A stretch of 50,200 nt of DNA from an uncultured Muribaculaceae bacterium (GTDB lineage: Bacteria > Bacillota_I > Bacilli_A > RF39 > UBA660): positions 9,800-59,999 of the forward strand of contig CAYJBC010000001.1 in assembly GCA_964368535.1 (NCBI GenBank), given 5' to 3'. The notes under the pieces were generated by a model. The model was not told the DNA's origin and searched no databases. It was given only the letters and a program-made list of their open reading frames with translations. The translations under genes were made by a program, and so were the position numbers. The first letter of the stretch is position 1. The number at the start of each line of letters is the position of its first letter. Of this stretch, positions 9,921 through 42,785 are shown piece after piece.

Positions 9921-9964
9921 TTATGAAATATGATTGTATAAATTCTTGTTGTGATTTTCTTTTT

Positions 9965-11014: not shown

Positions 11015-11023
11015 TGTTCCTCC

Positions 11024-19332: not shown

Positions 19333-20067
19333 TTATATATTAATTATTTTGTTTAAAAAATCTTTACTATGTAAATATAATCCTGTATATGAATCATAAT
19401 ACGCTTTTACAAACAAATTAATTTCTTCTTTTAAATTTTTATCTATCTTAATATTACTAATACTTTTTATATCAACCAAATAATACATTCTTAATAGTTT
19501 TATTATTTTCAAAGACACTATTTTAGAAACTGGAGTATAGCAGCGTTTACATATAAGGCCACCAAATGATGCGTCTACTGTAATAATATCTTTTTTATCA
19601 CCACAAACGCTGCATTCGTTCAAATTAATACCTACACCTAGAAAATCTAAGTATTTTAATTCTAAAATATTTGTAAGTATTACTGGATCTAAATTATTTT
19701 CTAATTTTAAAACAGTTTCAATAAAAAGTTTATATATTTTTTTTGAGTTGGACTGCTTAAATACTTGATGAGTTAAATCAGTTATATAAGTTAAGTAACT
19801 TATTAGAGTCAAATCATTTTTTATTGTTTTCAAAGGATTAATAATTTCTGCGTTTACCAATGTGCTGAGTTTTCCTTCTTTATACTTAATATTAAATAAT
19901 CCATAAGTAAATTTTAAAGTAGAACTCCTGTTTTTAGATTTCATTGATTTTGCACCCTTAGCCATAGTACCAATAATTCCATATTTCTCAGTCAAAACAT
20001 TTATTATTTTACTTGTCTCGCCATATAGTGATTCACTTACAATAAATCCTTCAACACATAAATCCAT
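19333..20067 (-). CDS. recO: DNA repair protein RecO
   Basis: 244 aa. OB-fold N-terminus (ESLYGETSKII), zinc motif CSVCG...CKRC. Sits immediately after era and yqzL, as in Bacillus. Confidence 0.88.
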   Translation of the reverse strand: MDLCVEGFIVSESLYGETSKIINVLTEKYGIIGTMAKGAKSMKSKNRSSTLKFTYGLFNIKYKEGKLSTLVNAEIINPLKTIKNDLTLISYLTYITDLTHQVFKQSNSKKIYKLFIETVLKLENNLDPVILTNILELKYLDFLGVGINLNECSVCGDKKDIITVDASFGGLICKRCYTPVSKIVSLKIIKLLRMYYLVDIKSISNIKIDKNLKEEINLFVKAYYDSYTGLYLHSKDFLNKIINI

Positions 20068-20069
20068 TA

Positions 20070-20159
20070 CTAACCTTTCTTTTCTACTTTTTTATATTCT
20101 AAATAATCTGCTACTTTTCCTGTTTTGGCAAACTTTCTCCAAGCCTTCATTTTATCCAT
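20070..20159 (-). CDS. yqzL: YqzL-like small protein (not in the supplied ORF track)
   Basis: My own translation gives MDKMKAWRKFAKTGKVADYLEYKKVEKKG*, with ATG at 20159 and TAG at 20072-20070. It occupies the era-recO gap where B. subtilis has yqzL. The W..F..TG....YL.YK pattern resembles that family (recalled from memory). Confidence 0.6.
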   Translation of the reverse strand: MDKMKAWRKFAKTGKVADYLEYKKVEKKG

Positions 20160-20209
20160 ATATATCACCTTCCTAATTTAGTTATGGTAATATATTTTAT
20201 TTTTATTCA

Positions 20210-22554: not shown

Positions 22555-23664
22555 TTAATTTATAATTTCTTCCGTTACTATAAATATATCTACTTCTATT
22601 GTACTATTATTTTCAGTTTTTTTCAAAACTTTTTTTTCTTTAATATATTCTAAGTCGTCAAGTTTGTCTTCCATTTTCTCTTCTGATAGTTCTAATGCTT
22701 TGTTTAAAGCCTCATCTACTGTTAATGTTTTATATTTTTTAATTATTTCTTTTTGAATTTCAAGATGTAATTTGTAACCAAATAAATCAAATAATGTAAT
22801 ATAATCACTTTCATAATTTTCTATCCGACTATTTAATATTTGTGTTTTTTTATCTTCGTGTTCCCAAGAAAAATTATATCTTTTATAGTCCGTTTCGACG
22901 TATTCAAAATATTCAAAAGGAATGCTTAAACTTGTTTCGTACCATCTTTCTGCCTTAATTATCCCTTCTGCACACACTTCACTTTTTAATATATCGTTAT
23001 ATATTATTTGTCCACTTATTAGTAAATCTCCCTCACTTATATAATCACCTATTTTTACAACTGGAACTCCTTTTTTAACACTTATACTAGTTATCACGCC
23101 GCTTTCTTTTGCATATACATCGCAATAAGGCTCTTCTTCTGTTTCAACATTAATTATTCTTTCTTGTAACTTTATTATGTATTTCATACCTACTTTTTCA
23201 ATTTCTAACCATTCAATCCTATCTTTATATTTATCTAATATTTCATTTTTTATTGTATTAATTTCATCATAATTTTTATTGAAATTTAGGTTTTTTATTC
23301 CATAATATTTTAATTCCTCATAAATTAATGATCTTAGAGAATCATTTTGATGAACAACTTCTACTTCGATAATTAAATGTGTTAATATAATCATCAAAAT
23401 ACCTGAAATAACGATAACCATTGTATATAATTTATTTTTTTTTAGTAAATCAAAAATATTATTTATTCCTTCTTTTTTTACTATTTTAAATTTGTAACTT
23501 ACAATGTATTTTTTTATTCTTTTATACCCACTTACACTTACTTTTAGATACAGATAGTTATTTGTTTTTTTTGAGTCATAAATCTCTATATTTAAATCAT
23601 TTAATTTTCTGATTAGTTTGTAAAAATTACTAGTTTTAGTTCTAATCCATATATTTTTATTCAT
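22555..23664 (-). CDS. yqfD: Sporulation protein YqfD
   Basis: Single TM near residue 90. GVITSISVKKGVPVVKIGDYISEGDLLISG is typical of YqfD. Start is ATG 23664 or TTG 23670, overlapping the end of yqfC. Confidence 0.82.
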   Translation of the reverse strand: MNKNIWIRTKTSNFYKLIRKLNDLNIEIYDSKKTNNYLYLKVSVSGYKRIKKYIVSYKFKIVKKEGINNIFDLLKKNKLYTMVIVISGILMIILTHLIIEVEVVHQNDSLRSLIYEELKYYGIKNLNFNKNYDEINTIKNEILDKYKDRIEWLEIEKVGMKYIIKLQERIINVETEEEPYCDVYAKESGVITSISVKKGVPVVKIGDYISEGDLLISGQIIYNDILKSEVCAEGIIKAERWYETSLSIPFEYFEYVETDYKRYNFSWEHEDKKTQILNSRIENYESDYITLFDLFGYKLHLEIQKEIIKKYKTLTVDEALNKALELSEEKMEDKLDDLEYIKEKKVLKKTENNSTIEVDIFIVTEEIIN

Positions 23665-23902
23665 AATCAAAATTTACACTTTCTACTAAACCATCTATTA
23701 GTACTTCGTTATTGAATAATTTTTTTACTATAAGTTTTTCTCCTTTTATTATAAGTTTGAATAATTCAAATTTAAATATTAAATTTTGATCTGAAAATTT
23801 AATTATTGTTTCATAATTAAATAAATGAATTTTTTCGTCATATATAGATATAAAATATTTTTGGTCATATAAAAAGTTTTTTATATTGTTTATTATATTC
23901 AT
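23657..23902 (-). CDS. yqfC: Sporulation protein YqfC (YabP/YqfC family)
   Basis: 81 aa. The pattern KIHLFNYETIIKFSDQNLIF...LIIKGEKLIVKKLFNNEVLIDGLVESVNF and the position upstream of yqfD. Confidence 0.72.
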   Translation of the reverse strand: MNIINNIKNFLYDQKYFISIYDEKIHLFNYETIIKFSDQNLIFKFELFKLIIKGEKLIVKKLFNNEVLIDGLVESVNFDYE

Positions 23903-23923: not shown

Positions 23924-23949
23924 TGAAAAAAAGCAAAATATTTGCTTTA
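23924..23949 (-). terminator. Weak AT-rich terminator-like hairpin after P1
   Basis: Minus strand reads AAAGCAAA-TAT-TTTGCTTT then a T-run. The P1 stop codon is in the stem. Only two G-C pairs. Confidence 0.4.
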
Positions 23950-25452
23950 TATATCTATTCTAAACGGATTTTCTTCAGCACCTGAACCACTTTTTAATAT
24001 AATCTCTGACTTTAAATAAAACACTGGTCTTATATATAGTGAGTTTGTAACACTATAGCCTCCTGATATAGCTCCTGAGCTGGAAATTGGATGTATATAT
24101 CCATTCGAAGCATATGGCGTTATTGTCCATTCAAATTGATTAATGAACATCCAGTTATTATCTTTATATTCGGTGTTGTTTTCTTGTTCACTTTGTTTTA
24201 GATTCCATAAATTTGGTGCTGCCGCATACAAATAGTCATATGCATTCATAATTGCTATATTATATGTACTAACTGTTTGTGCTTGTACTTCATCTTCATA
24301 CACATCTTGCGCTACTCCTGTAGTGGGATGCGTTAATTCATTAATATTATATGTTGATGCAATTATCATACTTTTATATTTTTCTCCAAACGTATCATAA
24401 AACGTGGTGTTTAAATAATTATTTGACCAAGCATCATCACTTACATTGTTTACATCTGTACCTTCCCATAAATTATTGCTTGATGTATGGTATCTCATTT
24501 GATCTCCGTTATCAACTATATTATTTAAGTTATAATCTATAGGAGTATTTTTTATTAGTTTAATTTTGTTTTCATATATTCCTAATATACGATACATATT
24601 GTCATCTGGACATATTTCATCGTCACTACCAAAACAAACATAATTATGAACAACATCATTGCCGCCTGAATATCTATAATTACCGTCTTCAGTGCTATTC
24701 AATAATCCAGGATCGTGTTTTATCAATGATGGAATCATATTGCTATTGTCTGATAGACATTGTGCCATTTTATCGCCTATGCAATTGTTTTCAACAGTGT
24801 TAGTATCTTGACTTAAAATTAACGTGCTATTTAGAGTTTTTCCAGTGTTACTACTTTGATCTGCATCATGATTTATAAATATTACTTCCGCCTCCCAATT
24901 ATGTGTAATTCCAGTTACTGAATCTGTTGTTTCAATTGTATAATTATTTGCTATAGTGAACATGCCAGTAACCGTTGTAATATCAAACCCTGATTGAGAA
25001 ACACCAGCTTTATCAAGAACTGTTTTGTGAGTTAATCCAGTAATTGAAGTCACTTCTTCGTTTGTTGGAGATATTATTTTCAGTAATATTTCTGGTATAT
25101 CTGTCGATTGTGTATATAAGTAATTATTATTATTAATGTTAAAATATACGTTGTACTTATCTGAAGCTGAACCAGCACTAGAATTTGCTGTCAACTTAGC
25201 TGTTGAAGTTGTTGATGCACTTAAAGTACCATGTCCTGACGAAAAATTTTCTATTGAAGCAACTAAATTAATATCTGCACCAGGGGTTAATTTTAATGAT
25301 TCTGATTTTGATGTAGTAACATTTATGTCTGTATTTGCTGGCGTTGCAATTTGCACTACAAAAAAACCAAATGATACACTTAATGTTATAATACTAATAA
25401 CTAATATTATTATTAGTATTGTATTTTTTTTAGTTTTATTTAATTTTATCAT
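23947..25452 (-). CDS. Paralog P1: conserved N-module (possible TasA/camelysin-like, SipW-type signal) plus class-A four-Cys C-module
   Basis: 501 aa. N-terminus KLNKTKKNTILIIILVISIITLSVSFGFFVVQ. Family motifs: LKLTPGADINL, AGSASDKYNVYF, IPEILLKII, GFDITT, HNWEAEVIFINHDADQSSNTGK. Class-A motifs: C..(7)..C, YRYSG, YVCFGSDDEICPDDNMYRILG. C-terminus RPVFYLKSEIILKSGSGAEENPFRIDI. Confidence 0.6.
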   Translation of the reverse strand: MIKLNKTKKNTILIIILVISIITLSVSFGFFVVQIATPANTDINVTTSKSESLKLTPGADINLVASIENFSSGHGTLSASTTSTAKLTANSSAGSASDKYNVYFNINNNNYLYTQSTDIPEILLKIISPTNEEVTSITGLTHKTVLDKAGVSQSGFDITTVTGMFTIANNYTIETTDSVTGITHNWEAEVIFINHDADQSSNTGKTLNSTLILSQDTNTVENNCIGDKMAQCLSDNSNMIPSLIKHDPGLLNSTEDGNYRYSGGNDVVHNYVCFGSDDEICPDDNMYRILGIYENKIKLIKNTPIDYNLNNIVDNGDQMRYHTSSNNLWEGTDVNNVSDDAWSNNYLNTTFYDTFGEKYKSMIIASTYNINELTHPTTGVAQDVYEDEVQAQTVSTYNIAIMNAYDYLYAAAPNLWNLKQSEQENNTEYKDNNWMFINQFEWTITPYASNGYIHPISSSGAISGGYSVTNSLYIRPVFYLKSEIILKSGSGAEENPFRIDI

Positions 25453-25461
25453 ATAACCTCT

Positions 25462-26907
25462 TTACATATCTATTCTAAACGGATTAGCTATTTTTCCGTT
25501 ACCATTTACAATTAGTACACTTTCATTCAAATAAAATACTGGTCTAGTATCTAATGAAGTGTTGTAATGATTTTGGTATACTCCACCACTATTGGAAATA
25601 ATAAATGGATAAGTTGTATCTTTAGAATTAATTGTCCATTCTTTAATTCCTGAAAACATCCAAGATAAATGATCATATGAATAAAAATATGATAACTTAG
25701 GTGGAGTAGCTTTTTTCCAATAACTTTCAGGAATAGTGTAAGTATAATCGCTTGTATTCATCAAACCTATTTTATTAGTTAATAATATATTTTTTTCTGC
25801 TGCTGATGCTACTGCCATAGTGTAATCTTGAGAATATATTGTTCCCACCTTATATTCATAATCTACAATCATATTCTGATATTTGCTGTTTATAGAATTA
25901 TAGAAATCATTATTTAAATATGATCTTAAAGAGGAATTTTCAAAATATGTTGCTCCAGTTGCATTCCACGGTAAAACACCTATACTAGTTTGTTTAATTA
26001 ATTTCACTTTATTATCAAATACACCCATTATACGGTACATATCAGCTTCAGAGCATACTTCTTCTTCGCTGCCAAAACATACATAATTATAATTTATTGT
26101 TTCACTATCTCCTGAGTATCTATAACTATTATCTAAGATGCTATATTGAAGATTTTCAGAGTGATGAATCATACCTTCTTGAATATTAATATTGTTAGTT
26201 AAACATTTTGAAAAACTAGTGTTGGCACAAATATCTCCAAGAGAAACATCATCAGTTTGAATTAATACTTTTGCCTCCATATTTTTATTTGAATTTAATG
26301 ATTGATCATGACTTAAGTTAACAAATTGCAATTCAAAATTCCAACTTTGAGAAGTTCCCGTTGCAATATTATTAGTGCTAATCAAGTATTCAGTTGCAAT
26401 AGCATAATATCCTGTTTTATTTGTAATATCAAAACCCGTTATATCTACATTGTTTGCATCTGCTACTGTTACATATTCTAAACCTTTAATTTCTTCTATC
26501 AAATCACCTTCAGGATTAGTAATTTTTAATATAATTTCTGGAGTCAAAACGCTTTGACTATATTCATACTCATTATTCAATATATTAAAATAAACGTTGT
26601 AATTTGCAGTAGCAGATCCTGCTTCGGTGCTAGGAAACAATTCTACTAGTGATGTAGAATTTGAACTTAGACTTCCATCTCCTGCAGAAAAATTTGATAA
26701 AGTCGCATGTAAATTAATAGTTTCACCTGGATTTATTTTTAAAAATTCATCTTGAAGAGATGTAAGCTCTAAATCTGTTTTTGCTGGTGCAGTTACCTGA
26801 ACAACAAAAAAAGCGAATGATACTAAAATACATGATATACTTAAAATAAGTACAATCAACAATATAATATTTTTTTTTGATTTATTAAAATTTAATGTTT
26901 TTTTCAT
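25462..26907 (-). CDS. Paralog P2: same N-module plus class-A C-module
   Basis: 481 aa. N-terminus ...KSKKNIILLIVLILSISCILVSFAFFVVQ. Motifs: LKINPGETINL, AGSATANYNVYF, TPEIILKIT, GFDITN, SQSWNFELQFVNLSHDQS, CFGSEEEVCSEADMYRIMG. C-terminus RPVFYLNESVLIVNGNGKIANPFRIDM. Sits 9 nt upstream of P1. Confidence 0.6.
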   Translation of the reverse strand: MKKTLNFNKSKKNIILLIVLILSISCILVSFAFFVVQVTAPAKTDLELTSLQDEFLKINPGETINLHATLSNFSAGDGSLSSNSTSLVELFPSTEAGSATANYNVYFNILNNEYEYSQSVLTPEIILKITNPEGDLIEEIKGLEYVTVADANNVDITGFDITNKTGYYAIATEYLISTNNIATGTSQSWNFELQFVNLSHDQSLNSNKNMEAKVLIQTDDVSLGDICANTSFSKCLTNNINIQEGMIHHSENLQYSILDNSYRYSGDSETINYNYVCFGSEEEVCSEADMYRIMGVFDNKVKLIKQTSIGVLPWNATGATYFENSSLRSYLNNDFYNSINSKYQNMIVDYEYKVGTIYSQDYTMAVASAAEKNILLTNKIGLMNTSDYTYTIPESYWKKATPPKLSYFYSYDHLSWMFSGIKEWTINSKDTTYPFIISNSGGVYQNHYNTSLDTRPVFYLNESVLIVNGNGKIANPFRIDM

Positions 26908-26925: not shown

Positions 26926-28362
26926 TTACAATCTAAATGGATTGTCAATTGTTCCATTACCACTTTTATACATTACACTTTCTGTTAAATAGAAACTTGG
27001 TCTTACACTTTGTTCTTGGGAAAAATCATGATATGTTAATAGTCCTGTCGACTGAAAACTAAACATTCTTTGCACATTATTTAGATCGTATATGGATATA
27101 ACCCATTCATCTAATCCAGAAAAAATCCACTCTGCCTCATCACTATAATATCTACTCCAATTTTCCGGGTCGGTAGAATATGCTAAATCAGTTAAACTTA
27201 TAAGCATAATTTTATTATTAACAGTTTTATAGGTATTTTCTATTCTAGATATTTCATAAGATGAATTTGCATTATCATGCGGATTTTTTGGAAAAGACCC
27301 ATATTTCCAATCGTAACTAGAAACATAATTTTGATATTTAGTTGGAAATGAATTATAAAAATCATTATTTAAATATTGTTCTAAGGATGAATTATTGTGG
27401 ATTTTACTAACTTCTGTATCCCAAGGTAATGATAAATTTGTTGTATTCTTCACGATTTTAACTAAACCGTCATATACTCCTATGATTCTATATAAATTAT
27501 CACTAGGACACTCCTCTTCGTCACTACCAAAGCATAAATAGTTATGTGATACTATTTCGTCTATTCCAGCAAATCTATAATTATCATCTAATGCTCCATT
27601 TGTTAAAGTGTTAGTATGATGATATAAACCATAGTATTGAGCATAATTATCAGTTATACAACTAGCAAGTGATTTTGTGTCACAATTTGGTGTAAATTTA
27701 TATTCAGCAGCACTAAATATTATCTTTGATTCCATCAATTTTTCTGTGTTACCCGATTGGTCACTATCTAAATTTAAAAATATTAATTCAAAATCCCATG
27801 TATGTGTAGTGCCTATTTCAGTATTGGTAGTGTCTATAGGTTGATTTTTGACTAATTCTAAGACTCCTTTTTGTGTTGTCATATCAAATCCCGAATGTTC
27901 CACACCATTTTTATCCATGACTGTTACATAATCCAATTTAGTGATATTATTTATCAGATTTCCATCCTGATTCGTAATTTTCAATAGAATTTCAGGCGTA
28001 CTATCTTTTTGAGTATAAACATAATTATTTTTTTCTACTTGATAATATATACTATATGAACTAGTAGCGCTCCCTGTTTCGTTATCCGGCAGTAAAGTCA
28101 CTGTTGGACTAGTTGTATCATTTAACGAACCAGTAGTAGTTGAAAAATTTTCTATTGTTGCATGGATACTTAAATCTCCACCAGGACTGAATATCAATTC
28201 CTCTTCTTGAGATGTTTCAGCCTTTAGACTGGTTCTTGAAGGTGAACTGACTTGAGAAATAAAGAATGCAAAAGTAGCTGCAACAACTGCTATTCCTATC
28301 AACACAATAAATATTATTACAACTATTTTTCTTTTAATTAAAAACGTTTTGAGTTTGTTCAT
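26926..28362 (-). CDS. Paralog P3: same N-module plus class-A C-module
   Basis: 478 aa. N-terminus ...IGIAVVAATFAFFISQ. Motifs: FSPGGDLSI, TGSATSSYSIYY, TPEILLKIT, GFDMTT, THTWDFELIFLNLDSDQSGN, CFGSDEEECPSDNLYRIIG. C-terminus VRPSFYLTESVMYKSGNGTIDNPFRL. AAGGAG SD. Confidence 0.6.
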   Translation of the reverse strand: MNKLKTFLIKRKIVVIIFIVLIGIAVVAATFAFFISQVSSPSRTSLKAETSQEEELIFSPGGDLSIHATIENFSTTTGSLNDTTSPTVTLLPDNETGSATSSYSIYYQVEKNNYVYTQKDSTPEILLKITNQDGNLINNITKLDYVTVMDKNGVEHSGFDMTTQKGVLELVKNQPIDTTNTEIGTTHTWDFELIFLNLDSDQSGNTEKLMESKIIFSAAEYKFTPNCDTKSLASCITDNYAQYYGLYHHTNTLTNGALDDNYRFAGIDEIVSHNYLCFGSDEEECPSDNLYRIIGVYDGLVKIVKNTTNLSLPWDTEVSKIHNNSSLEQYLNNDFYNSFPTKYQNYVSSYDWKYGSFPKNPHDNANSSYEISRIENTYKTVNNKIMLISLTDLAYSTDPENWSRYYSDEAEWIFSGLDEWVISIYDLNNVQRMFSFQSTGLLTYHDFSQEQSVRPSFYLTESVMYKSGNGTIDNPFRL

Positions 28363-28383: not shown

Positions 28384-29955
28384 TTAGTTTACTGTATATG
28401 GTTCATTCCAAGTACCATTGCCCGTTACAATTGTATTGCTTTTGAGTGAAATCACTGGTCTAACACCTTTACTAGAGTTTACAGTTGTTCCTCCGTTGTT
28501 TCCATTTGAATATATAACATGGTTTTCTACCCTTGAACTAAGATTGTATTCTTTTGGAGATAATGTCCAATAATCTAACGGCGCCAATAAATAGTGATTT
28601 TGATTATCCCAATACATACCTGATTGCAAAACTTCATTAAATGATATCGTTGAAACAGGAAAAGTTAATGATGAATTTCCGAAAGTGTCATCATTAACTG
28701 TATACGCATCTAGTTTATTAGGACAAGTTAATGCAACGTCACTTGATCCAAAATATTGTGGTCTAAAACTTATATATGCAACAGGTGTTTGGCGGCTGTA
28801 ATCAGTGTAGGCTGTACGATCACCACAAAATAATGTGTCAGAAACATAACTATGGAATCCTGAATTATAAATATTAGTTTCATACCACTGGTCAATATAT
28901 GTTTTTATATTACTGGATTCTTTAAGACCGTGAAAATCATCATCGTACATATAACCAGCATATTTTGCTGTTGTATAACTTGCATTAAACAGCGAATTAC
29001 CAATACTTGTTTCGTTACTAAGCATCGTTACTTTTTGATCTTCAGTCGGCTTAGTTGGGCCGCTATATATCATACGAATACTACCATCACCATTTATTCT
29101 TATTATTCTCCAGTAAAATCCAGCGAAATACACCCAGTTATCATCAACAGCCCCTCTGAAATAATAACTAATCCCGTAATCATCTTGGCTTGCAAATACA
29201 CCTTCATCTACAGTAGCGTTTACTGAAAAATCTGGTTCAGTTTTTGATAAAATAGCTTTTTCGCCATCATTGTTTTCTAATATTTTGTAACTTAACAAGC
29301 TTTGATAGTCTTCTTTTTGTAGAATAAAAAATGAAGATAAACTTTTATTTTTATTGGCATTTTGATCTGCATTGTAATTTACAAAGATTAATTCCACATT
29401 CCACGTTTGCGTAGTGCCTTCGGTTGCATTAGTTGTTTCAATTTGGTATTCACTGGCAATTTGTAAAAGTCCTATATATGTAGTTATGTCAAATCCTGAT
29501 AATTCTTCGCCGTCAGCATCCAATACAGTTTTGTGTGTTACCCCATCAATTAATTTTAATTCTTCACCACTTGGATTTGTTATTTTTACCAGTAATTCTG
29601 GAGTTTCTGTATTTTGCGTATAAATAAATTCATTAGTTTGGATATGCAAGTAAACATTATAGTTCGAAGACGCAGACCCTGCTTCTACATCCGGAATTAG
29701 TTTTGCTGTTGATGTAGCCACTGTGTTTATTGATCCACTGGTTTCATTAAAATTATTAACCGATGCAGAAAGGATCATTTCTTCTCCAGGTGTAAATGTT
29801 AAATTTTCTAAAACTCCTGATGACAAATTAACATTTATTTCCTCAGCTGTATATAACTGTACAACAAAATATGCGAATGATACTGCTATTATCCCCACAC
29901 TTGCCACTAATACTATTAAAAGAATCATATTTTTTTTAGTCTTATTGAAATTCAT
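28384..29955 (-). CDS. Paralog P4: same N-module plus class-B C-module
   Basis: Start at ATG 29955 (MNFNKTKKNMILL...) behind AGGTGA. The track start at 29964 is a GTG inside the SD. Motifs: VSFAYFVVQ, FTPGEEMIL, AGSASSNYNVYL, TPELLVKIT, GFDITT, TQTWNVELIFVNYNADQNANK. Class-B motifs: DDYGISYYFRGAVDDNWVYFAGFYWRIIRINGDGSIRMIYSG, FCGD...CPNK, YWTLSP. C-terminus GVRPVISLKSNTIVTGNGTWNEPYTVN. Confidence 0.6.
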   Translation of the reverse strand: MNFNKTKKNMILLIVLVASVGIIAVSFAYFVVQLYTAEEINVNLSSGVLENLTFTPGEEMILSASVNNFNETSGSINTVATSTAKLIPDVEAGSASSNYNVYLHIQTNEFIYTQNTETPELLVKITNPSGEELKLIDGVTHKTVLDADGEELSGFDITTYIGLLQIASEYQIETTNATEGTTQTWNVELIFVNYNADQNANKNKSLSSFFILQKEDYQSLLSYKILENNDGEKAILSKTEPDFSVNATVDEGVFASQDDYGISYYFRGAVDDNWVYFAGFYWRIIRINGDGSIRMIYSGPTKPTEDQKVTMLSNETSIGNSLFNASYTTAKYAGYMYDDDFHGLKESSNIKTYIDQWYETNIYNSGFHSYVSDTLFCGDRTAYTDYSRQTPVAYISFRPQYFGSSDVALTCPNKLDAYTVNDDTFGNSSLTFPVSTISFNEVLQSGMYWDNQNHYLLAPLDYWTLSPKEYNLSSRVENHVIYSNGNNGGTTVNSSKGVRPVISLKSNTIVTGNGTWNEPYTVN

Positions 29956-30000
29956 ATGTTTCACCTATTATAAATTATACATTATATATCTTTTTTTTTC
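29956..30000 (-). promoter_or_regulatory. Candidate promoter and short leader of the P4-P1 operon
   Basis: Lies between the valS terminator and the P4 start. Minus strand reads ...GATATATAATGTATAATTTATAATAGGTGAAACATATG, with a TATAAT hexamer at 29979-29974 and the SD AGGTGA. It is loosely similar to the 32-nt box upstream of P5, P6 and the WG-like operon. Confidence 0.35.
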
Positions 30001-30032
30001 AATAAAAAAGCATTAAGATTTTATCTTAATGC
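30001..30032 (-). terminator. valS rho-independent terminator
   Basis: Perfect 9-bp stem GCATTAAGA/TCTTAATGC (30010-30018 and 30024-30032) with a 5-nt loop containing the TAA stop. Followed on the minus strand by TTTTTTATT. Confidence 0.7.
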
Positions 30033-32543
30033 TTCCAGTTCTTTTATTTCTTTTTCCAATGATTCTTTTTCTTTTTCTACTAATTCAACCGGAGCTTTTG
30101 ATATATAATTATCATTTGAAAGTAGTTTTTTTCTTCTTTCGATACTACTTTCTAATGATTTTACTTGTTTTTCTTTTAGAAGTATATCTTCTTCTGTCTC
30201 TTCTTTTTCAAAATATATTGTCATACCATATTCTTTAGTGAATACATCAAACGAAGTGATGTTTAAGGTGTTAGTTATAATATTGTTTTCTAGTTTTAAT
30301 ATTTTATTTATAAGTGAATAATCATTTTCTTTTGTAATTATTACTTTTAAATCGTTAGTTATTTTATTGTCTAACTTTACATTTCTAAACATTTTAATGA
30401 ATGAAATCATTTCATCAATTAAAGATTCTTCTTTTTTAAACATTAAATTTTTATCATACACTGGGTACTTTTCAATCATAATTGAATCTTCATTTTTAAC
30501 TGGTAACATATTATATATTTCCTCAGTAATAAATGGTGTAAATGGATGCATCAGTTTTAATATTTTATCCATTACATATATAAGTGTGTTTTTAGTAGAT
30601 ATTTTATCTAAACTAAATTTACTCATTTCTATATAGTTATCACAAAAATCTGACCATATAAAATTATATAATGTATTTCCTACTAAATTGAAATCATATT
30701 TTTCCATGTTTTTAGTAACTTCTTTTATAACTTTATTTAATTTAGTTAATATCCATTTATCTTTATTTTCTAAATCATTTAATTTTATTTCTTTTAATTC
30801 TTCAGTATTCATAAGAACGTATCTAGATGCATTCCATAATTTATTTAAAAAATTCCAAGATGATGCCACTTTATCAATATCAAATCTTAAGTCTAAACCA
30901 GCTGCACTATTAGTTGTTAAGAATAATCTAAGTGCATCTGTTCCATATTCTTTAATTACATCCATTGGATCTATTCCATTACCTAAACTTTTTGACATTT
31001 TACGCCCATCTTTATCCCTAATAAGTCCATGTATCAAACATTCTTTAAATGGTCTTTGATTAGTAAAATGTAGTCCTTGGAATGTCATACGATTTACCCA
31101 AAAAGGTATAATATCATAACCTGTAACTAGTACATTATTTGGGTAATATCTTTTATAATCATCTGTAATATTTGGCCAACCTAAAGTACTAAATGGCCAT
31201 AACGCTGATGAAAACCATGTATCTAGTACATCTGGATCTTGAACCCATCCATCACCTTCTGGAGCTTTATCTCCAACATAAACTTCTTCGCCATTATACC
31301 ATGCTGGTATTCTATGTCCCCACCATAATTGTCTTGATATACACCAGTCATAAGTTATTTCCATCCAGTGATTCATTATTTTTTCAAATCTCTCTGGAAC
31401 GAAATTTACTTTTGAATCTTTTTTCTTTTGATTTTCTAAAACTTTGTCAGCAAGTGGTCTCATTTTTACAAACCATTGTTTAGAAAGATATGGTTCAACT
31501 ACTGCGTTTGTTCTCTCGGAATGCCCTACACTATGCGTCATTTCTTCTATTTTAATAAGTAAATTGAGTCCCTTAAGCTTTTCAACTAATTTTTTTCTAG
31601 CATCAAAACGATCTAGCCCTGCGTACTCTAGTGCATTGTCATTCATTGTTCCATTTGCATTTATACACATAACTCTTTCTAAGTTATGTCTATTTCCTAC
31701 TTCAAAGTCATTTGGATCATGTGCAGGAGTTATTTTAACTACTCCAGTACCAAATTCAGGATCAGCATGAGAGTCGCCTACTACCGGTATTTTTTTACCC
31801 GATATAGGTAATATTACATATTTACCGATTAAACCCTTATATCTATCATCTTTTGGATTTACTGCTACTGCAGTATCTCCAAATAATGTTTCTGGTCTTG
31901 TAGTTGCTACTTCTAAATATTCTTGAGTTCCATCAATCATATACTTCAAATGATAAAATGCTCCAGTGATATCTTTATATATAACTTCCTCATTAGATAA
32001 GGCTGTCATTGCTTCAGGATCCCAGTTAATTATTCTTTCTCCTCGATAAATCAAACCTTCATTATACATTTTTATAAAAACTTCATTTACTGTTTGAGAC
32101 AATTCTTTATCTAGTGTAAATCTTTCTTTAGAATAACATAGTGAAAGACCCATTTTAGCCCATTGATTTCTTATATTTTCAGAATATTCTTCTTTCCATT
32201 TCCAAGCAATATCTAGCCAAGCATCTCTATCCATTTCTCTAGGATTAACACCTTCACTTTTAAGTTTTGCATCAACTTTGGCTTGAGTAGCAATTCCTGC
32301 ATGATCCATTCCAGCAAGCCACATTGCATCATAACCTTGCATTCTTTTGAATCTAATAAGAATATCTTGAATAGATGTATCCCATGCATGACCTAAATGA
32401 AGTTTACCGGTTACATTTGGTGGAGGTATAACTATTGAAAATGGTTCTTTTTCTTTTTTATCAGCTTCAAAATATTTATTTTTAAGCCAAAAATCATATT
32501 TGCCTTCTTCTACTTTAGTATGATTATATTTTGTTTCTAACAT
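30021..32543 (-). CDS. valS: Valine--tRNA ligase
   Basis: 840 aa. PPPNVTGKLHLGHA (HIGH), KMSKSLGN (KMSKS), a CP1 editing region and a C-terminal coiled coil. Confidence 0.97.
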   Translation of the reverse strand: MLETKYNHTKVEEGKYDFWLKNKYFEADKKEKEPFSIVIPPPNVTGKLHLGHAWDTSIQDILIRFKRMQGYDAMWLAGMDHAGIATQAKVDAKLKSEGVNPREMDRDAWLDIAWKWKEEYSENIRNQWAKMGLSLCYSKERFTLDKELSQTVNEVFIKMYNEGLIYRGERIINWDPEAMTALSNEEVIYKDITGAFYHLKYMIDGTQEYLEVATTRPETLFGDTAVAVNPKDDRYKGLIGKYVILPISGKKIPVVGDSHADPEFGTGVVKITPAHDPNDFEVGNRHNLERVMCINANGTMNDNALEYAGLDRFDARKKLVEKLKGLNLLIKIEEMTHSVGHSERTNAVVEPYLSKQWFVKMRPLADKVLENQKKKDSKVNFVPERFEKIMNHWMEITYDWCISRQLWWGHRIPAWYNGEEVYVGDKAPEGDGWVQDPDVLDTWFSSALWPFSTLGWPNITDDYKRYYPNNVLVTGYDIIPFWVNRMTFQGLHFTNQRPFKECLIHGLIRDKDGRKMSKSLGNGIDPMDVIKEYGTDALRLFLTTNSAAGLDLRFDIDKVASSWNFLNKLWNASRYVLMNTEELKEIKLNDLENKDKWILTKLNKVIKEVTKNMEKYDFNLVGNTLYNFIWSDFCDNYIEMSKFSLDKISTKNTLIYVMDKILKLMHPFTPFITEEIYNMLPVKNEDSIMIEKYPVYDKNLMFKKEESLIDEMISFIKMFRNVKLDNKITNDLKVIITKENDYSLINKILKLENNIITNTLNITSFDVFTKEYGMTIYFEKEETEEDILLKEKQVKSLESSIERRKKLLSNDNYISKAPVELVEKEKESLEKEIKELEALR

Positions 32544-33471: not shown

Positions 33472-34263
33472 TTAAATTTCAAGTAGTTCCCCATCGACAT
33501 ATATTCCGTTGTCTTCTACAGTTACTTCTTCAGCAGTAATGTATACATATTTTTCTTCTATATCTTCATAAATATAAGTAGCTAAATTAGTAGTTATTAC
33601 AAAATAATTTTCTGTTATATACAAATCATTTATATTATATGACCATAAATATTCTAAACCATTATAATCATATATTTTATAGTATTCATCCTCTGTAGAT
33701 ATTATAAATCTATCATTATACGTATATATCTCTTCATATGTGTCAGTAATTGATTCATTTTCATTATTTACTAAATACTGTCCAGAATCATCTTGTACTA
33801 AAAATTCAGTTGCATCCTTTTGCATTATTATATCTTGGTAAACAAAAGGAACTACCACTTTCATTTTATCTAAGTCAAATACTCCATATTTATCACTTAC
33901 AAGTCCAATTAAATATTTTTCAGACAAATTATCATCCAAATATTTTATATCATCTATTGTTGTTATATCATTTCCTGAAACAAAATCATATAAATAATAT
34001 TTATCGTTATCACTTATGAAAGCATAATTACCATAGGTAGCATTAGGGAATTTACAATCTTCACTTTTACATGTGTAAGTTCCTAATAATTCTTCATTGT
34101 TATAAAAATACAGTTTTCCTTCGTATACACTTTTCATTTCTGGATTATCTATGGTACTTATATTAAATATTTTTAAATAAGCACCATAGATTGTCATTAT
34201 ACTAAATATAACTAATAGAACAACTATAATAATATATATTACTTTTTGATTGCTTTTTATCAT
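33472..34263 (-). CDS. Membrane-anchored WG-like (YG-variant) repeat protein
   Basis: 263 aa. N-terminal TM. DKYGVFDLDKMKVVVPFVYQDI resembles KWG/WG repeats. ATGA overlap with the upstream gene. Confidence 0.5.
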   Translation of the reverse strand: MIKSNQKVIYIIIVVLLVIFSIMTIYGAYLKIFNISTIDNPEMKSVYEGKLYFYNNEELLGTYTCKSEDCKFPNATYGNYAFISDNDKYYLYDFVSGNDITTIDDIKYLDDNLSEKYLIGLVSDKYGVFDLDKMKVVVPFVYQDIIMQKDATEFLVQDDSGQYLVNNENESITDTYEEIYTYNDRFIISTEDEYYKIYDYNGLEYLWSYNINDLYITENYFVITTNLATYIYEDIEEKYVYITAEEVTVEDNGIYVDGELLEI

Positions 34264-36320
34264 AGTAAATCGCCATTAGAATCAAAACTATATGTTTGAA
34301 CTACTTTTTTATTAGCGTCTATTAATTCTATTTTAAATCCAGCTGATCCATTGTCTACGAAATTAAAATCATCTGTTGTTACAGTTACTTCTTTAGATAA
34401 TATATTTACTTTACCAGATGTATATTTATATACACCAAGTGTTTTGCCATCTGCCGCTAAAAAGACATTATCACCAAGCATTATTTCTGTAGCAGGGTTA
34501 GATATTATACTGCCATTCATACTGTATACCAAATATTTACCATCACTTGATTTAACTTTGATATATCCATCTACAAAATCTATTACTTCATTTTTAATAC
34601 TTGTAGATGAACCAGTTAATTCTTTGCCGGCAGAATCATATATTTTATATTCTCCATCACTATTTTTAGCAAGATATCCATTATTTAATATTTCTATACT
34701 AGTATATTCAAATGGTATAAATCCTTTAACATCACTACTTGTCATATTAACAATACCATATAACTTTTTACTATTCTGAGCCATTATCAATAAATTACTT
34801 GTAGTAGCTGAAATTATTTGATCTTCACTATTGTAATAGCCAACATCAACTTTAATGTATGTAGCTACATCTTTATTATCTTCTAAGTTATATAATATAA
34901 TATTGTCATTAGCTGATGAAGAGCTAGCATCATTTATAAATACATACTTATTATTATATATTGGTATGTACCCTAATGTATCTTTTGAATTTGTTCTATT
35001 TAATAATTTACTTTCTTTAGCTATAAAACATGTAGTAAATTCAGTTGTTTCTTCAGTTACATTATTTTCATTTTCACACTCATAAGATCCTATAACTTCT
35101 GTTTTATCAGCATCTTGGTAAATATAAATTATTCCATCTATATAATTTATATATTCATATTTAGAATTAATATTAGCTTCGTATGTATTAATACTTTCTT
35201 CTTTATTATCTATTGTAATTTTTAAAAGACCTTCTCCATCTAAAACTATTTTATAGCTTTCTTCACTACTTAGTGTTTTATAACTTTTATCTAGGACTGC
35301 TTCCTTTATGTATTTTTCGCTAGATAATTCGTATCCAATTTCATTAAGTTTATTTCCTATGTGGTTTACAATAAATAGTTTTGAATCAGATACGTATTCT
35401 GCATAGTTACCAGTTATATTTGCATAATCAAAGCTGCCATCTAATACTCTTTCTTTTGTATAATTTATTATATAATAATTAGTAGCTTTTAAGACTATCA
35501 AATTTTCATCATTATAACTAACTATTTGATCTGATATATCTGATACTGCAGATGTTCCATCATTTTTTAACAAGCCATATTTACCATCTTTTTCATAAGA
35601 AATATTTTCTTTGCCATCTAATGATCCTAAGTAAGAATATTCAAAAGGTACTAAATCTACTTTTCCTGTTTCATCGAATGAAATAATCCCAAATAAATCT
35701 TCTTCATTTTGAAGTATTAAAGCACTATCTCCATATTTTTTAGCGGTTTTATATTCACCTAAAATTTCTTCATTTTTTATATCATATAATAATAGTTTCT
35801 TATCTTCATCATTCTCGAAGTCGTAAATAAACACAAAATTATCTTCATAAGTCGGTATACTAAACTCCATTAGATTTCCATCTTCATCATAATATTTTGA
35901 ATTATTTAATACTTCGTCTTGATTATAATAACCAATTAAACATTTTGTTTCATCTTGGTTTTCACATTCATAAGTTCCAAGTTCTTTATCACTCTTATCT
36001 AAAAACACTAATGTTCCATTTTCGTATCTATAGTTATTCATTTCCAGTATAATATCTGGAGTTTCATCAGTTTTTTTATCCTCATCATCCTTAAACACCA
36101 CGAAGTATAAAATTACTCCTGCAATGACTAGAGTGACAAAAATTATCGCAGATATAAAAATTATTTTTTGGTTTTTACTCATTTTTTTAAACCAATTTCT
36201 TTTATTTTTCTTTATTTTTTTGTATTCTTCATGTTCAGATGTAACTTCTTCTATTTCGGCATTTACTATTTCTTCTTCCTCTTTAACTATTTGTTCAATT
36301 TCATTATTATATTCTTCCAT
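34260..36320 (-). CDS. Membrane-anchored WG-like repeat protein with an acidic cytoplasmic N-terminus
   Basis: Start at ATG 36320 (MEEYNNE...), with the SD GAGG inside the 6-codon track extension. E/K-rich N-terminus then a TM. Repeats include DGKYGLLKNDGTSAV, LFGIISFDETGKVDLVPFEYSYL and LYGIVNMTSSDVKGFIPFEYTSI. Confidence 0.5.
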   Translation of the reverse strand: MEEYNNEIEQIVKEEEEIVNAEIEEVTSEHEEYKKIKKNKRNWFKKMSKNQKIIFISAIIFVTLVIAGVILYFVVFKDDEDKKTDETPDIILEMNNYRYENGTLVFLDKSDKELGTYECENQDETKCLIGYYNQDEVLNNSKYYDEDGNLMEFSIPTYEDNFVFIYDFENDEDKKLLLYDIKNEEILGEYKTAKKYGDSALILQNEEDLFGIISFDETGKVDLVPFEYSYLGSLDGKENISYEKDGKYGLLKNDGTSAVSDISDQIVSYNDENLIVLKATNYYIINYTKERVLDGSFDYANITGNYAEYVSDSKLFIVNHIGNKLNEIGYELSSEKYIKEAVLDKSYKTLSSEESYKIVLDGEGLLKITIDNKEESINTYEANINSKYEYINYIDGIIYIYQDADKTEVIGSYECENENNVTEETTEFTTCFIAKESKLLNRTNSKDTLGYIPIYNNKYVFINDASSSSANDNIILYNLEDNKDVATYIKVDVGYYNSEDQIISATTSNLLIMAQNSKKLYGIVNMTSSDVKGFIPFEYTSIEILNNGYLAKNSDGEYKIYDSAGKELTGSSTSIKNEVIDFVDGYIKVKSSDGKYLVYSMNGSIISNPATEIMLGDNVFLAADGKTLGVYKYTSGKVNILSKEVTVTTDDFNFVDNGSAGFKIELIDANKKVVQTYSFDSNGDLL

Positions 36321-36352
36321 ATAGTACCTCACTATCATAATTATATTATCAT
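36321..36352 (-). promoter_or_regulatory. Conserved 32-nt promoter/leader box, copy 1 (WG-like operon)
   Basis: Minus strand reads ATGATAATATAATTATGATAGTGAGGTACTAT followed by ATG. TGaTAATAT looks like an extended -10. ATGATAGTGAGG supplies the SD. Confidence 0.5.
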
Positions 36353-36394
36353 AAAAAAAACAAAAAATAAATATGTTGTCTTACATATTTATTT
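36353..36394 (-). terminator. P5 terminator
   Basis: 12-bp AT-rich stem AAATAAATATGT/ACATATTTATTT (36365-36376 and 36383-36394) with a 6-nt loop. Followed on the minus strand by TTTGTTTTTTTT. Confidence 0.6.
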
Positions 36395-37986
36395 TAATTT
36401 ACAGCATATGGGTCATTCCATGTACCACTTCCAGTTATTCTTACTGTAGGTTTAAGTGCAATGACTGGTCTAATATCTAGAAAGTCATAATTATCACTAC
36501 TAACTGAAATGCTTTTTTGAATAGATACACTGTTCCAGATACTTGATGTTTGTGATAAACCATTTGAATCTTCATACCTTCTAAATCGTTGATTATAATC
36601 AGTATAAGTCCAGTATTCATTATTAGAAGCTATGTGATTTGCAATGTTGTCATCTAGAGCACCTACATATAGTGCTTCATCACCTGTGATGGAGCCAATC
36701 GGATATATCAAAGAGGAATTACCTTTTTCAATATCATTATATGTATTACTTGATTCTTTATTTACACAAACCATAGATGGGGTTTGCGGGTAGCGGCTAG
36801 TGAATGCATAATCTTTTTCAGTACTATAATAATTACCACCACCTGGGGCTACACCACTATGCCAATCTCTAATTTTGTGATTATCGTAACAGTACAAAGC
36901 ATCATTTATATAAGAATCAAAATTTTCCTCAAATATGTATTGAACGTACCATTCTTCTAAAACATTACTTTGGTTTCCGTGTGTTGTTTCTGCAATACTT
37001 GTATCATTTCCGGTTTTATAGATTTTTTCTGACTCTGTTGGTGGTGTAATTCCCGAATACAATAATTTTATTGCCCCGTTACCATCAATTCTTAATATTT
37101 TCCAATAAAATCCAGCAAATGTAAGCCAATTATTTTCTACAGCACCCCTATAAAAATATGTCGTTCCATAATCATCATCCGCTGCATACATACCATTTGC
37201 AATTTCATATCTGCTACTCGGATTACTATCATATTCACTTTGAGTTACAGGTATTTTAGTAACATCAAAAGTTTTGTTTTTTATACTTTGCTCTCCTCCG
37301 TTATCTGCTAATATTTTTCCATATATCGGGTAAGTAAAATGTTCTTTGCTTAAGTAAACTTCTGATTCAAAATTTTTACCCATGTTATTTGATTGATCTG
37401 CATCAAGATTAACAAAAATAACTTCAAAATTCCAGTTTTGTACTGTTGGATTATTTGAATCATTATTAGTAATTGAATAATTTTCTTTTATATTAATTAC
37501 ATCATTATATGTGGTAATATCAAATCCTTTTAATGTGTTTCCATCTACGTCGATTATAGTTTTATACTCCAGACCTTCTAAGAATGTTATTTCTGTATTA
37601 CTAGGATCTATGATTTTTAATAACAATTCTGGAGTATCGTTTCCTTGTGTGTATATAAAATTATTGCTAGAAACGTAGTAATATACGTTATATGTCTGAC
37701 TAGCTGAACCAACTGATTCGCTTGATTTTAAAGTCGCAACTGAGTTCGCTGAGTCTTTTAATGTTCCCTCGGTCATCGAAAAGTTTTCTAACGTCGCGTA
37801 AACATTTACTTTTTCCCCATTAGAAAATGATAAACCTTCAATTTTTTCCGAACCAGAAAACAAACTGGTTTCAGCACCAACTGATGATACTACAAAAAAA
37901 TATGCAAAAGATACCGCTATTGTTATTATACTCAAAATAAGTATACTTAGAAGTATAATGTTTTTTCTAGTCCTACAAAATTTCAT
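36394..37986 (-). CDS. Paralog P5: same N-module plus class-B C-module
   Basis: Start at ATG 37986 (MKFCRTRKNIILL...). Motifs: VSFAYFFVVS, VGSASQTYNVYY, TPELLLKII, GFDITT, VQNWNFEVIFVNLDADQSNN, DDYGTTYFYRGAVENNWLTFAGFYWKILRIDGNGAIKLLYSG. C-terminus IRPVIALKPTVRITGSGTWNDPYAVN. Confidence 0.6.
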   Translation of the reverse strand: MKFCRTRKNIILLSILILSIITIAVSFAYFFVVSSVGAETSLFSGSEKIEGLSFSNGEKVNVYATLENFSMTEGTLKDSANSVATLKSSESVGSASQTYNVYYYVSSNNFIYTQGNDTPELLLKIIDPSNTEITFLEGLEYKTIIDVDGNTLKGFDITTYNDVINIKENYSITNNDSNNPTVQNWNFEVIFVNLDADQSNNMGKNFESEVYLSKEHFTYPIYGKILADNGGEQSIKNKTFDVTKIPVTQSEYDSNPSSRYEIANGMYAADDDYGTTYFYRGAVENNWLTFAGFYWKILRIDGNGAIKLLYSGITPPTESEKIYKTGNDTSIAETTHGNQSNVLEEWYVQYIFEENFDSYINDALYCYDNHKIRDWHSGVAPGGGNYYSTEKDYAFTSRYPQTPSMVCVNKESSNTYNDIEKGNSSLIYPIGSITGDEALYVGALDDNIANHIASNNEYWTYTDYNQRFRRYEDSNGLSQTSSIWNSVSIQKSISVSSDNYDFLDIRPVIALKPTVRITGSGTWNDPYAVN

Positions 37987-38018
37987 ACATATCCTCACTA
38001 TCATATTAATATTATCAT
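37987..38018 (-). promoter_or_regulatory. Conserved 32-nt promoter/leader box, copy 2 (P5)
   Basis: Minus strand reads ATGATAATATTAATATGATAGTGAGGATATGT followed by ATG. Confidence 0.5.
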
Positions 38019-38058
38019 AATTAAATAAAAAAATAAACATGTTAATTTATATATATTT

Positions 38059-39219
38059 TTAATTTACATTATATATATCTCTAGTATATACTTTGTTTAA
38101 CACATCAAGCAGATCATTATTCATTCTATTTGCAATAATCAAATCACTGCTTGTCTTAAACAATTTTAAATTATTGACCAATTTAAACTCTACTGCTTCT
38201 TTTAACAAAGGTTCGTAAACTAAAACATTTATTTTGTTTTTTTGTAACTTCTCTATTATTTTTAATAAAACACTTGATCTAAAATTAACAGAGTCTTTTT
38301 TCATATTTATTCTATAAACCCCAACAGTAGATAAATTCATATTTATTACTCTCTTTACAATGTAGTCAATTCTAGTATCATTTGATGTAGTAATTGAATT
38401 TATAATTCCATCACCTAAGTCTCGAAAATTTCTTGTTAATTCTTCAGTATCTTTAGGTAAACAGTACCCTCCATAACCAAACGATGGATTATTGTAACTG
38501 TTCCCTATTCTTGGATCAAATGCCATTCCGTCAATTATATTTTTTGAATTCATACCTTGTTTTTCTGCTAACATATCTAATTCATTAAAAAATGCTATTC
38601 TCATTGCTAAATATGCATTACTAAACAATTTTATAGCTTCGGCTTCTTTATTTGAAGTATATAAAATGTCTATTTTTTCTTTTAATGCGCATTCCTTTAA
38701 TATGGAAACAAACTTTTGAGCATCTTTATTTTCTCTAGACATTACTATTCTAGAGGGATATAAATTATCATATAATGATTTACTCTCACGTGAAAATTCT
38801 GGAGAAAACATAATTTTATCAGTATCGAATAATTCACACATTTCGTCAGTAAAACCGATTGGAACGGTGGATTTAATTATTATATTTGATGACACATTAA
38901 CTTTATTTATATCAATTAATATTTTTTTGATTGAACTTGTATTTAATTGTTGTTTTTTTAAATCGTAGTCAGTTGGAGTGCATATCACCACATATTCAGC
39001 ATTTTTGTATGCTTCACTTTTATTTAGTGTTGCTTTAATGTTTAAATTTTTATACTCTAAAAAATGTATAATATCATTATCAAGTATAGGAGATATTTTT
39101 TTATTTAATAAATCTACTTTATTTTTGTCTATTTCTAAAATTGTAATTTCATATTTTTGTGATAACAGCACTGCAAGAGATAATCCCACATATCCCATTC
39201 CTACAATTGTTATTTTCAT
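38059..39219 (-). CDS. ugd: UDP-glucose 6-dehydrogenase
   Basis: 386 aa. N-terminal Rossmann motif KITIVGMGYVG and the catalytic-Cys motif FGYGGYCLPKD. The start overlaps the GT2 stop as ATGA. Confidence 0.88.
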   Translation of the reverse strand: MKITIVGMGYVGLSLAVLLSQKYEITILEIDKNKVDLLNKKISPILDNDIIHFLEYKNLNIKATLNKSEAYKNAEYVVICTPTDYDLKKQQLNTSSIKKILIDINKVNVSSNIIIKSTVPIGFTDEMCELFDTDKIMFSPEFSRESKSLYDNLYPSRIVMSRENKDAQKFVSILKECALKEKIDILYTSNKEAEAIKLFSNAYLAMRIAFFNELDMLAEKQGMNSKNIIDGMAFDPRIGNSYNNPSFGYGGYCLPKDTEELTRNFRDLGDGIINSITTSNDTRIDYIVKRVINMNLSTVGVYRINMKKDSVNFRSSVLLKIIEKLQKNKINVLVYEPLLKEAVEFKLVNNLKLFKTSSDLIIANRMNNDLLDVLNKVYTRDIYNVN

Positions 39220-42753: not shown

Positions 42754-42785
42754 ATTATACCTCGCTATCATGATAATTTTATCAT
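42754..42785 (-). promoter_or_regulatory. Conserved 32-nt promoter/leader box, copy 3 (P6 operon)
   Basis: Minus strand reads ATGATAAAATTATCATGATAGCGAGGTATAAT followed by ATG. TGaTAAAAT looks like an extended -10. This copy also contains the palindrome ATGATAA-AA-TTATCAT. Confidence 0.5.

Follow-up and report, generated by a model that had tools for sequence, protein, structure and literature searches.

The subject of this analysis is a group of six paralogous genes on the minus strand of a 50,200-nucleotide stretch of contig CAYJBC010000001.1 (the window, meaning the whole stretch that was analyzed), with the gene at positions 28384 to 29964 as the target. Their products are probably modular proteins, exported via Sec and located at the surface or outside the cell, and they belong to a large unnamed family found in uncultured, low-GC gut Bacilli. 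They are built from a TasA-type signal peptide, a tail of fixed length, a new β-sandwich, and variable heads resembling C-type lectins. Together, they most plausibly provide the cell with a set of proteins that bind ligands or glycans at or beyond its surface. In such a system, the pre-protein would be exported, the archaeal/SipW-type signal peptidase of the organism would cut after a conserved alanine, and the shared N-terminal module (N-module) would serve as a common scaffold, a stalk or an assembly unit, that displays diversified ligand-binding heads, the repertoire of paralogs giving rise to different binding specificities. We infer cleavage, the surface or extracellular location, and lectin-like binding from sequence comparison and structure prediction. 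What is new here is the occurrence of a signal of the SipW-cognate type on an uncharacterized domain together with putative lectin heads.

Six paralogs share one N-module and carry two types of heads

The target is a 526-amino-acid (aa) open reading frame (ORF) whose likely start is the ATG at 29955, yielding 523 aa, and not the upstream GTG, since the public protein P0129, which is the target protein, begins with MNFNK. Four segments can be distinguished in it, all on the minus strand. The predicted signal peptide or signal anchor (MNFNKTKKNMILLIVLVASVGIIAVSFA, 29872 to 29955) ends at a putative cleavage site A|YF, placed by register with TWA|AF of TasA. It is followed by an N-terminal tail (YFVVQLYTAEEINVNLSSG, 29815 to 29871) with an alternating I-N-V-N-L pattern, which is left unplaced in the monomer model, by the N-module core (29305 to 29814), predicted as a β-sandwich of about 10 strands without a Pfam or PDB relative, and by a C-terminal head (28387 to 29304). 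The segment from 29320 to 29955, on which the earlier note had focused, corresponds to residues 4 to 215 of the ORF.

The N-module of ~215 aa is common to all six paralogs, with 36 to 47% identity to the target in the alignment. Full-length identity to the target falls into two bands, 26 to 30% and 38 to 40%, because the paralogs carry two head types. Group A heads are found at 26926 to 28362 (N-module 27697 to 28362), 25462 to 26907 (N-module 26242 to 26907), and 23947 to 25452 (N-module 24793 to 25452). Apart from the target, group B heads are found at 36394 to 38040, with a probable start at ATG 37986 (MKFCRTRKN, as in P0138) and the N-module at 37336 to 37986, and at 41200 to 42771, with a probable start at ATG 42753 (MKLNKRK, as in P0133) and the N-module at 42106 to 42753. 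For the three group B genes, the program-listed ORF starts lie too far upstream, and the public versions use internal ATGs. That one N-module occurs with two head types points to a constant scaffold on which the heads were exchanged by domain shuffling or diverged.

Each paralog begins with a basic, K-rich n-region and a hydrophobic helix that ends in SFAYF (two paralogs), TFAFF, SFAFF, SFGFF, or SLAYF, exactly as the earlier note had read them. A six-frame scan for [STG][FWYLV][AG][AYF]F, with matches near a stop codon dropped, returned seven matches, of which six are the paralogs and the seventh is an internal stretch (SDTFAYFTG) in the ORF at 11024 to 11809. The note had also listed a series of ordered landmarks in the N-module, and the six-paralog alignment bears them out as invariant (L.F.PG, NF, G[ST], and W..E..F.N...DQ..N..K). 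Neither a canonical lipobox nor a G|F..E prepilin motif occurs in any of the six, in agreement with the note, and prepilin and lipoprotein signals were rejected on sequence.

A large family without a name

An exhaustive hidden Markov model (HMM) search identified 2,767 family representatives (clusters at 50% identity) at E≤1e-3 and 842 at E≤1e-30. Among 8,000 candidates scored, at least 1,010 clusters at 90% identity reached E≤1e-10, and a descriptive name from any source was attached to none of the 120 of these that were listed. A word-index homolog search had given only 5 matches, under-reporting the family compared to the exhaustive search. The species-representative genomes contained 133 stretches with a gene for a relative, from which 78 loci were retained. 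Nearly without exception, these come from metagenome-assembled genomes (MAGs) labeled as uncultured Bacilli, Tenericutes, Firmicutes CAG:460, Clostridium CAG:609, or Candidatus Onthocola; a few bear the label Muribaculaceae and one the label Elusimicrobia. Related genomes typically contain 6 to 9 family loci. One of the loci, L005 (MAG CAYJNS010000001), packs six family paralogs on both strands into ~10.6 kb (1010 to 11593). Our literature search on the family found nothing. The family, present at 6 to 9 or more loci in related MAGs, is unnamed and without a structure, and Pfam has no domain for its conserved module. The gut Bacilli that carry it have reduced genomes and are uncultured.

The signal peptide resembles that of TasA across the family

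The family alignment contains 234 N-modules, 125 of which remain after a 60% identity filter. Within the N-terminal region, conservation peaks at the consensus G-A-T-[YF]-A-[YF]-F, with 3.0 bits per position, compared to 1.8 bits for the h-region. With cleavage placed as in TasA, T or S occupies position -3 in 96% of the family and A occupies position -1 in 94%, meaning that the signal-peptidase-I rule is obeyed. Polar residues (Q-A-Q-G/T-G) follow the motif, and the modal length of the predicted signal peptide is 27 to 28 aa. The end of the signal peptide of TasA and CalY (PF12389, processed by SipW), T-[FWY]-A|[AY]-F, aligns with this motif in register. The TasA motif given in the earlier note is exact, as the PDB entry 8AUR starts at A28 with AFNDIK.

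Profile comparisons point in the same direction. An NCBIfam scan of 91 N-terminal fragments matched TIGR04088, the SipW-dependent-type signal peptide, in 46 fragments at E≤1 (best E = 4e-5), the highest number for any NCBIfam model, shared with a generic FliL model. Weak matches to TIGR04090 (BsaA) and TIGR04087 (TapA) were found in 8 and 3 of these N termini, respectively. As a control, the 11 residues around the motif were permuted in the same 91 fragments. After shuffling, TIGR04088 was no longer among the 25 families listed and thus matched at most 2 members, while the generic FliL-type transmembrane match stayed on top with fewer members, indicating that the similarity to TIGR04088 is motif-specific and not compositional. 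When the family was aligned by hhalign to ~120 TasA/CalY homologs, only the signal peptide aligned, TyAYF falling on TWAAF (P = 4.4e-4, probability 33%). An HMM built from Bacillus-type TasA signal peptides scored 27% of family N termini above all 939 control ORFs from the same loci. TIGR04088 scores are mostly under the curated cutoff of 19 bits, the best individually listed relatives reaching 15.0 and 17.1 bits, and the match was obtained in 1 of 10 full-length relatives. Overall, at the level of sequence, the resemblance to TasA-type signal peptides is real and motif-specific across the family.

The N-module core is predicted to be a family-specific β-sandwich

The earlier note had gone further and suggested that the N-module may be a TasA-like β-sandwich that polymerizes by donor-strand exchange. 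Spelled out for this family, the tail, which begins with YF and continues as an alternating I/V strand, would enter the sandwich of the next subunit after SipW-type cleavage, resulting in fibers decorated with lectin-like heads in which proteins without a head would form the shaft. For the mature N-module, AlphaFold2 (AF2) was given an alignment of 69 sequences and predicted a β-sandwich of ~10 long strands with a mean predicted local distance difference test score (pLDDT) of 88.3 and a predicted template modeling score (pTM) of 0.81. When this model was compared to the PDB by Foldseek, nothing was found at E≤1e-3, template modeling (TM) scores did not exceed 0.30, and the TasA fiber 8AUR was not among the best 50 matches listed; those listed were infectious bursal disease virus VP2, Pgp3, botulinum neurotoxin Hc, legume and phloem lectins, FedF, and a phage tail fiber. 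With the model that contains the helix, 8AUR appeared at rank 37 (E = 0.013, TM 0.31, root mean square deviation 11.9 Å), which was the best TasA match. All PDB matches are generic β-sandwiches or jelly-rolls with TM≤0.31, and a search of BFVD yielded capsid and P-domain jelly-rolls with TM≤0.33. A TasA-type fold relationship is known to escape automated searches (PMC9245690).

Sequence comparisons of the mature module gave the same result. PF12389 matched 0 of 6 paralogs and 0 of 90 relatives at E≤1, and hhalign of the mature family against mature TasA was not significant (P = 0.36). Sequence searches of the PDB returned no match with a 6-sequence profile at E≤10 or with a 90-sequence profile at E≤1. 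Pfam assigned nothing to the N-module in the 90 relatives and the six paralogs; a match to the Caf1 antigen in 1 of the 90 relatives (E = 0.0026) was treated as noise. Scanned with Pfam and NCBIfam, as the note had suggested, the six paralogs matched neither a TasA or camelysin model nor a SipW-cognate one. A relationship of the mature module to TasA or camelysin, and with it the TasA-like β-sandwich that the note had considered, is not supported by any of the PF12389, hhalign, and Foldseek comparisons. The predicted structure is best described as a new, family-specific jelly-roll-like β-sandwich with a core of ~165 residues and no detectable relative.

Several likenesses to TasA and CalY stand beside these differences. 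The mature β-rich domain is about as large (~190 residues), a flexible N-terminal segment comes right after the putative cut, and the lineage of the family has an archaeal-type signal peptidase. Unlike TasA, which has no head, most family members carry a C-terminal head of 250 to 800 aa; they are also encoded by many paralogs per genome and lack an operon of the tapA-sipW-tasA kind. BsaA of Clostridium perfringens (TIGR04090) shares the SipW-type signal and undergoes donor-strand exchange via a disordered N-terminal loop (PMC11580942), but the matches of the family to it are limited to signal-peptide fragments, and the family has no sipW-linked operon. The vWA protein BsaC, encoded in the same operon as BsaA, has a predicted secretion signal and SipW processing, meaning that this route is wider than small TasA-like subunits.

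TapA of Bacillus subtilis and AbpB of Pyrobaculum, accessory proteins processed by SipW or a signal peptidase, resemble the family in the order of their parts, namely, a signal peptide, an N-terminal donor-like strand, and then β domains. For the distal domains of AbpB, a role as adhesins similar to FimH has been proposed (PMC9245690). The statement in the earlier note that a modular fiber architecture of this kind had not been described was overstated, as the same paper considers TapA and AbpB to be donor-strand proteins whose additional domains may be adhesive (PMC9245690). The differences are that the macroglobulin-like fold of TapA is not among the listed Foldseek matches, that the TIGR04087 matches are few and weak, and that TapA and AbpB are single accessory genes while the family is multicopy.

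The heads are variable and partly match DUF6273

The conserved motif of the group A heads is NYRY.G...YVCFGS..CP.DN.YRI.GV., which contains Cys and is of the DUF6273 type. The group B heads are recognized by DDYG.SYYFRGAV.NNW..F...YWRI.RI.G.G., which in the target reads YYFRGAV..NW..F...YWRIIRINGDG and is followed by RPV..L and G.GTWN.PY. The heads end in a ...RP.F.L....G.G....P.RI motif. Four of the six paralogs in the window have a PF19789 (DUF6273) match. The gathering score, 23.5 bits, is exceeded in two of them (26.1 bits in the gene at 26926 to 28362 and 26.8 bits in the gene at 25462 to 26907) and missed in the other two (20.4 bits in the gene at 23947 to 25452 and 19.1 bits in the target, E = 0.0013, residues 455 to 509). 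Among the 90 relatives, 33 have a PF19789 match at E≤1, and this is the sole recurrent Pfam family there. DUF6273 is described as a C-type-lectin-like domain and, in phages, as a receptor-binding domain diversified by diversity-generating retroelements (DGRs) (PMC10743442). The likeness to the DUF6273 phage receptor-binding proteins called tentaclins is confined to the head and does not extend to the N-module; in contrast to tentaclins, the domain here follows a signal peptide and a new β-sandwich in one protein, and its genes lie in a cellular, housekeeping context in which no DGR is seen.

Tail and headless genes hint at assembly

Two features outside the core may hint that the N-module assembles. 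One is the tail. In the AF2 model of the mature construct, residues 1 to 19 (YFVVQLYTAEEINVNLSSG) have pLDDT<50 beside a core with pLDDT>90. In 198 of 222 members (89%), the first core strand, conserved as ..L.F..G, follows the signal-peptide motif at a distance of 23 residues, and in 96% at a distance of 22 to 24. Such a fixed length is unlike a free linker, for which some variation in length would be expected. The tail itself is moderately conserved, with a mean of 1.5 bits, ~2 bits at alternating positions, and a T-D/N-V/I-x-V/I-T pattern. In TasA, the donor strand consists of residues 28 to 38, which come first once SipW has cut, and F29 makes a key contact (PMC9674648); in the family, Y at +1 and F at +2 are conserved in 80% and 83% of members.

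The other feature is the existence of headless genes, which encode ~212 aa with the signal peptide and the N-module, end right after the last strand, and have no head sequence downstream. They occur in at least 10 loci and constitute a conserved clade with 53 to 88% identity across MAGs. Examples are located at 11841 to 12476 of L023, 3343 to 3990 of L025, 7933 to 8601 of L033, 11602 to 12261 of L034, 11566 to 12204 of L043, 11767 to 12411 of L071, and 3162 to 3821 of L075, and others are found in L011, L035, L061, and L072. Seven headless genes lie directly downstream of a head-bearing paralog, which in L043 is located at 9974 to 11542. The pair has a fixed chromosomal position between murB-ftsQ-queH and an xerC-like gene with an ABC transporter, the order of the block being murB, ftsQ, queH, the pair, a small coiled-coil protein, the xerC-like gene, the ABC transporter, a polysaccharide deacetylase, and cdsA. 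A head-bearing protein next to a headless one recalls an adhesin-plus-shaft logic, an analogy that is suggestive only.

Taken with the motif-specific TasA-type signal peptide and the TasA-like size of the mature N-module, these observations would fit donor-strand fibers, the tail and headless genes being hints of assembly that are suggestive only. Arguing against such fibers, besides the missing sequence, profile, and fold similarity to TasA, are the complete and confident sandwich that AF2 builds for the monomer (a weak point, as monomeric TasA is also self-complemented), the block in which the pair resides, which is not a tapA- or sipW-like operon and has no dedicated assembly gene among its conserved neighbors, and the lack of a headless gene in the window. 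On balance, non-polymeric adhesins have a probability somewhat short of even, and self-assembly through the N-terminal tail is possible but doubtful. That the N-module follows the TasA donor-strand scheme is rather unlikely, and so is the bolder reading of the family as an unrecognized branch of TasA-like donor-strand filaments in uncultured gut Bacilli, with headless subunits in the shaft, C-type-lectin-like heads contributed by the head-bearing paralogs, and no dedicated assembly machinery.

The outcome matters in either case. If the N-module assembles like TasA, donor-strand-exchange matrix fibers would extend to a new fold or lineage, and assembly would bring a FimH-like adhesin-plus-shaft logic into a Gram-positive system that works without chaperones. 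Without assembly, the family would still offer many candidate lectin-like adhesins that could recognize glycans of the host or its diet, and the TasA-type signal motif would mark more than TasA-fold proteins.

Signal peptide, peptidase, and heads: points of doubt

Several observations weigh against exported, cleaved proteins with lectin-like heads, and they concern the signal peptides of the window's own paralogs, the signal peptidase, and the heads. In the six paralogs, the motif takes the degenerate form S/T-F/L-A/G-Y/F-F. None of the six matches TIGR04088, and the four N-terminal fragments tested had no match even at E≤10. On the TasA signal-peptide HMM, the six score from -2.2 to 3.4 bits, inside the range of the controls. 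A helix-breaking G or P at positions -3 to -6 is found in 0 of 6, compared to 71% of the family, and the 6 residues that follow the motif include 2 to 4 hydrophobic ones (4 in the target), the family norm being 0 to 1. The earlier note's proposal of a SipW-type signal peptide is upheld for the family, by TIGR04088 and hhalign, and is not supported by these scores for the very paralogs on which it was based. Because the target lacks a G/P breaker and has hydrophobic residues after the motif, cleavage of its signal peptide is uncertain. By these sequence features, the six are an atypical sub-branch that may stay membrane-anchored.

The note itself had warned that the helix might be an uncleaved anchor, and for the window's six this caveat stands. 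The proteins would then be type II membrane proteins in which the N-module is a short stalk for the lectin-like head and FAYF is an interfacial aromatic belt. Consistent with this, the hydrophobic stretch of the target runs past the motif for a total of ~27 residues, and AF2 predicted one continuous helix over residues 8 to 37 of the 526-aa ORF when the helix was included. For the family, the conserved residues at -3 and -1 and the polar QAQ-G after the motif speak against an anchor, and a motif at 3 bits per position next to an h-region at 1.8 bits suits a peptidase site better than an interfacial belt. Moreover, a tether of 20 residues and one domain would bury the head under a Gram-positive wall, and the organism has genes related to the wall and to sporulation (GH25, YqfD, and VanZ). 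For the window's six, we regard retention by an uncleaved anchor as unlikely.

In the interpretation preferred here, an archaeal/SipW-type signal peptidase would cleave the exported proteins. No S26 signal-peptidase motif was found in the six-frame translation of the 50-kb window. Among relatives, 1.2 Mb of flanks of the 78 loci was searched, and L005 encodes a complete gene on the minus strand at 19703 to 20200, which matches TIGR02228 (archaeal/SipW-type signal peptidase I) with 59.9 bits (cutoff 51.85) and carries SMEP, THRIV, and GDNN boxes. L023 and L071 each contain a partial homolog at the locus edge. A SipW-type gene is located within ~10 kb of a family locus in 3 of 78 loci, and the one in L005 is ~8 kb beyond the six-paralog cluster and adjoins rplI and dnaB. 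As this is a housekeeping context, the presence of the peptidase says nothing specific about family substrates. Genetic linkage between the peptidase and the family was rejected, since 3 of 78 is roughly the chance rate of a single-copy gene, by a rough estimate, and the context is housekeeping. We read the SipW-type enzyme as a general signal peptidase of the lineage and not as a dedicated partner, which matches the proposal for archaeal AbpA (PMC9245690). The earlier note had made the existence of such an enzyme in the genome a touchstone of its proposal; relatives do encode it, and it lends the proposal no specific support.

With respect to the heads, two of the six have no Pfam match, and one of the three group B heads has a weak DUF6273 match at its C-terminal end. 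A lectin-like function of the heads is therefore suggested by weak DUF6273 matches in conjunction with the literature.

Genomic surroundings

The window has a GC content of ~27%, and nearly all transcription is from the minus strand. The family genes are found among valS, pyk, lysS, era, recO, yqfD, a gene for a VanZ protein, a GH25 muramidase gene, and a trio of genes for UDP-glucose 6-dehydrogenase (UGDH), GT2, and Wzy_C proteins. An origin as prophage or mobile-element receptor-binding proteins, similar to tail fibers and targeted by DGRs, could draw on the DUF6273 heads, which are known DGR targets in phage receptor-binding proteins, and on the phage tail fiber and viral capsid jelly-rolls among the top Foldseek matches, but the TM scores of those matches are low (≤0.33), a Sec-type signal peptide is present in every member, the neighbors in the window and in the conserved syntenic blocks are housekeeping genes, and no phage structural gene, reverse transcriptase, or DGR was seen in the context of family genes, so we rejected this highly improbable origin on genomic context.

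The UGDH, GT2 glycosyltransferase, and Wzy_C (O-antigen-ligase-like) membrane protein genes occupy 38059 to 41212 on the minus strand, with overlapping starts and stops, and are wedged between the paralogs at 36394 to 38040 and 41200 to 42771. A link of the family to glycosylation or polysaccharide attachment was considered and dropped, because this trio is not conserved beside family genes in related loci.

Between a family paralog and valS, two N-terminally membrane-anchored proteins of 263 and 692 aa are encoded on the minus strand (33472 to 34263 and 34260 to 36338). They have no meaningful Pfam match and contain repeated ...YG(I/V/L)... motifs. The order of a family gene, the 692-aa protein, and the 263-aa protein also occurs in L024 and in L015, where valS comes next.

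Leaders of the T-box type might be expected at valS and lysS in a Firmicute. The tRNA scan and the Rfam scan at gathering thresholds were both empty for the 50-kb window, and no T-box leader was detected by Rfam near valS (30021 to 32543) or lysS (45349 to 46824), possibly due to divergence of the lineage.

Finally, the yqfD gene at 22555 to 23670 encodes a full-length homolog of the stage IV sporulation protein YqfD (E = 1.9e-56), suggesting that this organism, despite its small-genome, Tenericutes-like relatives, has retained sporulation genes and may even be able to form spores.

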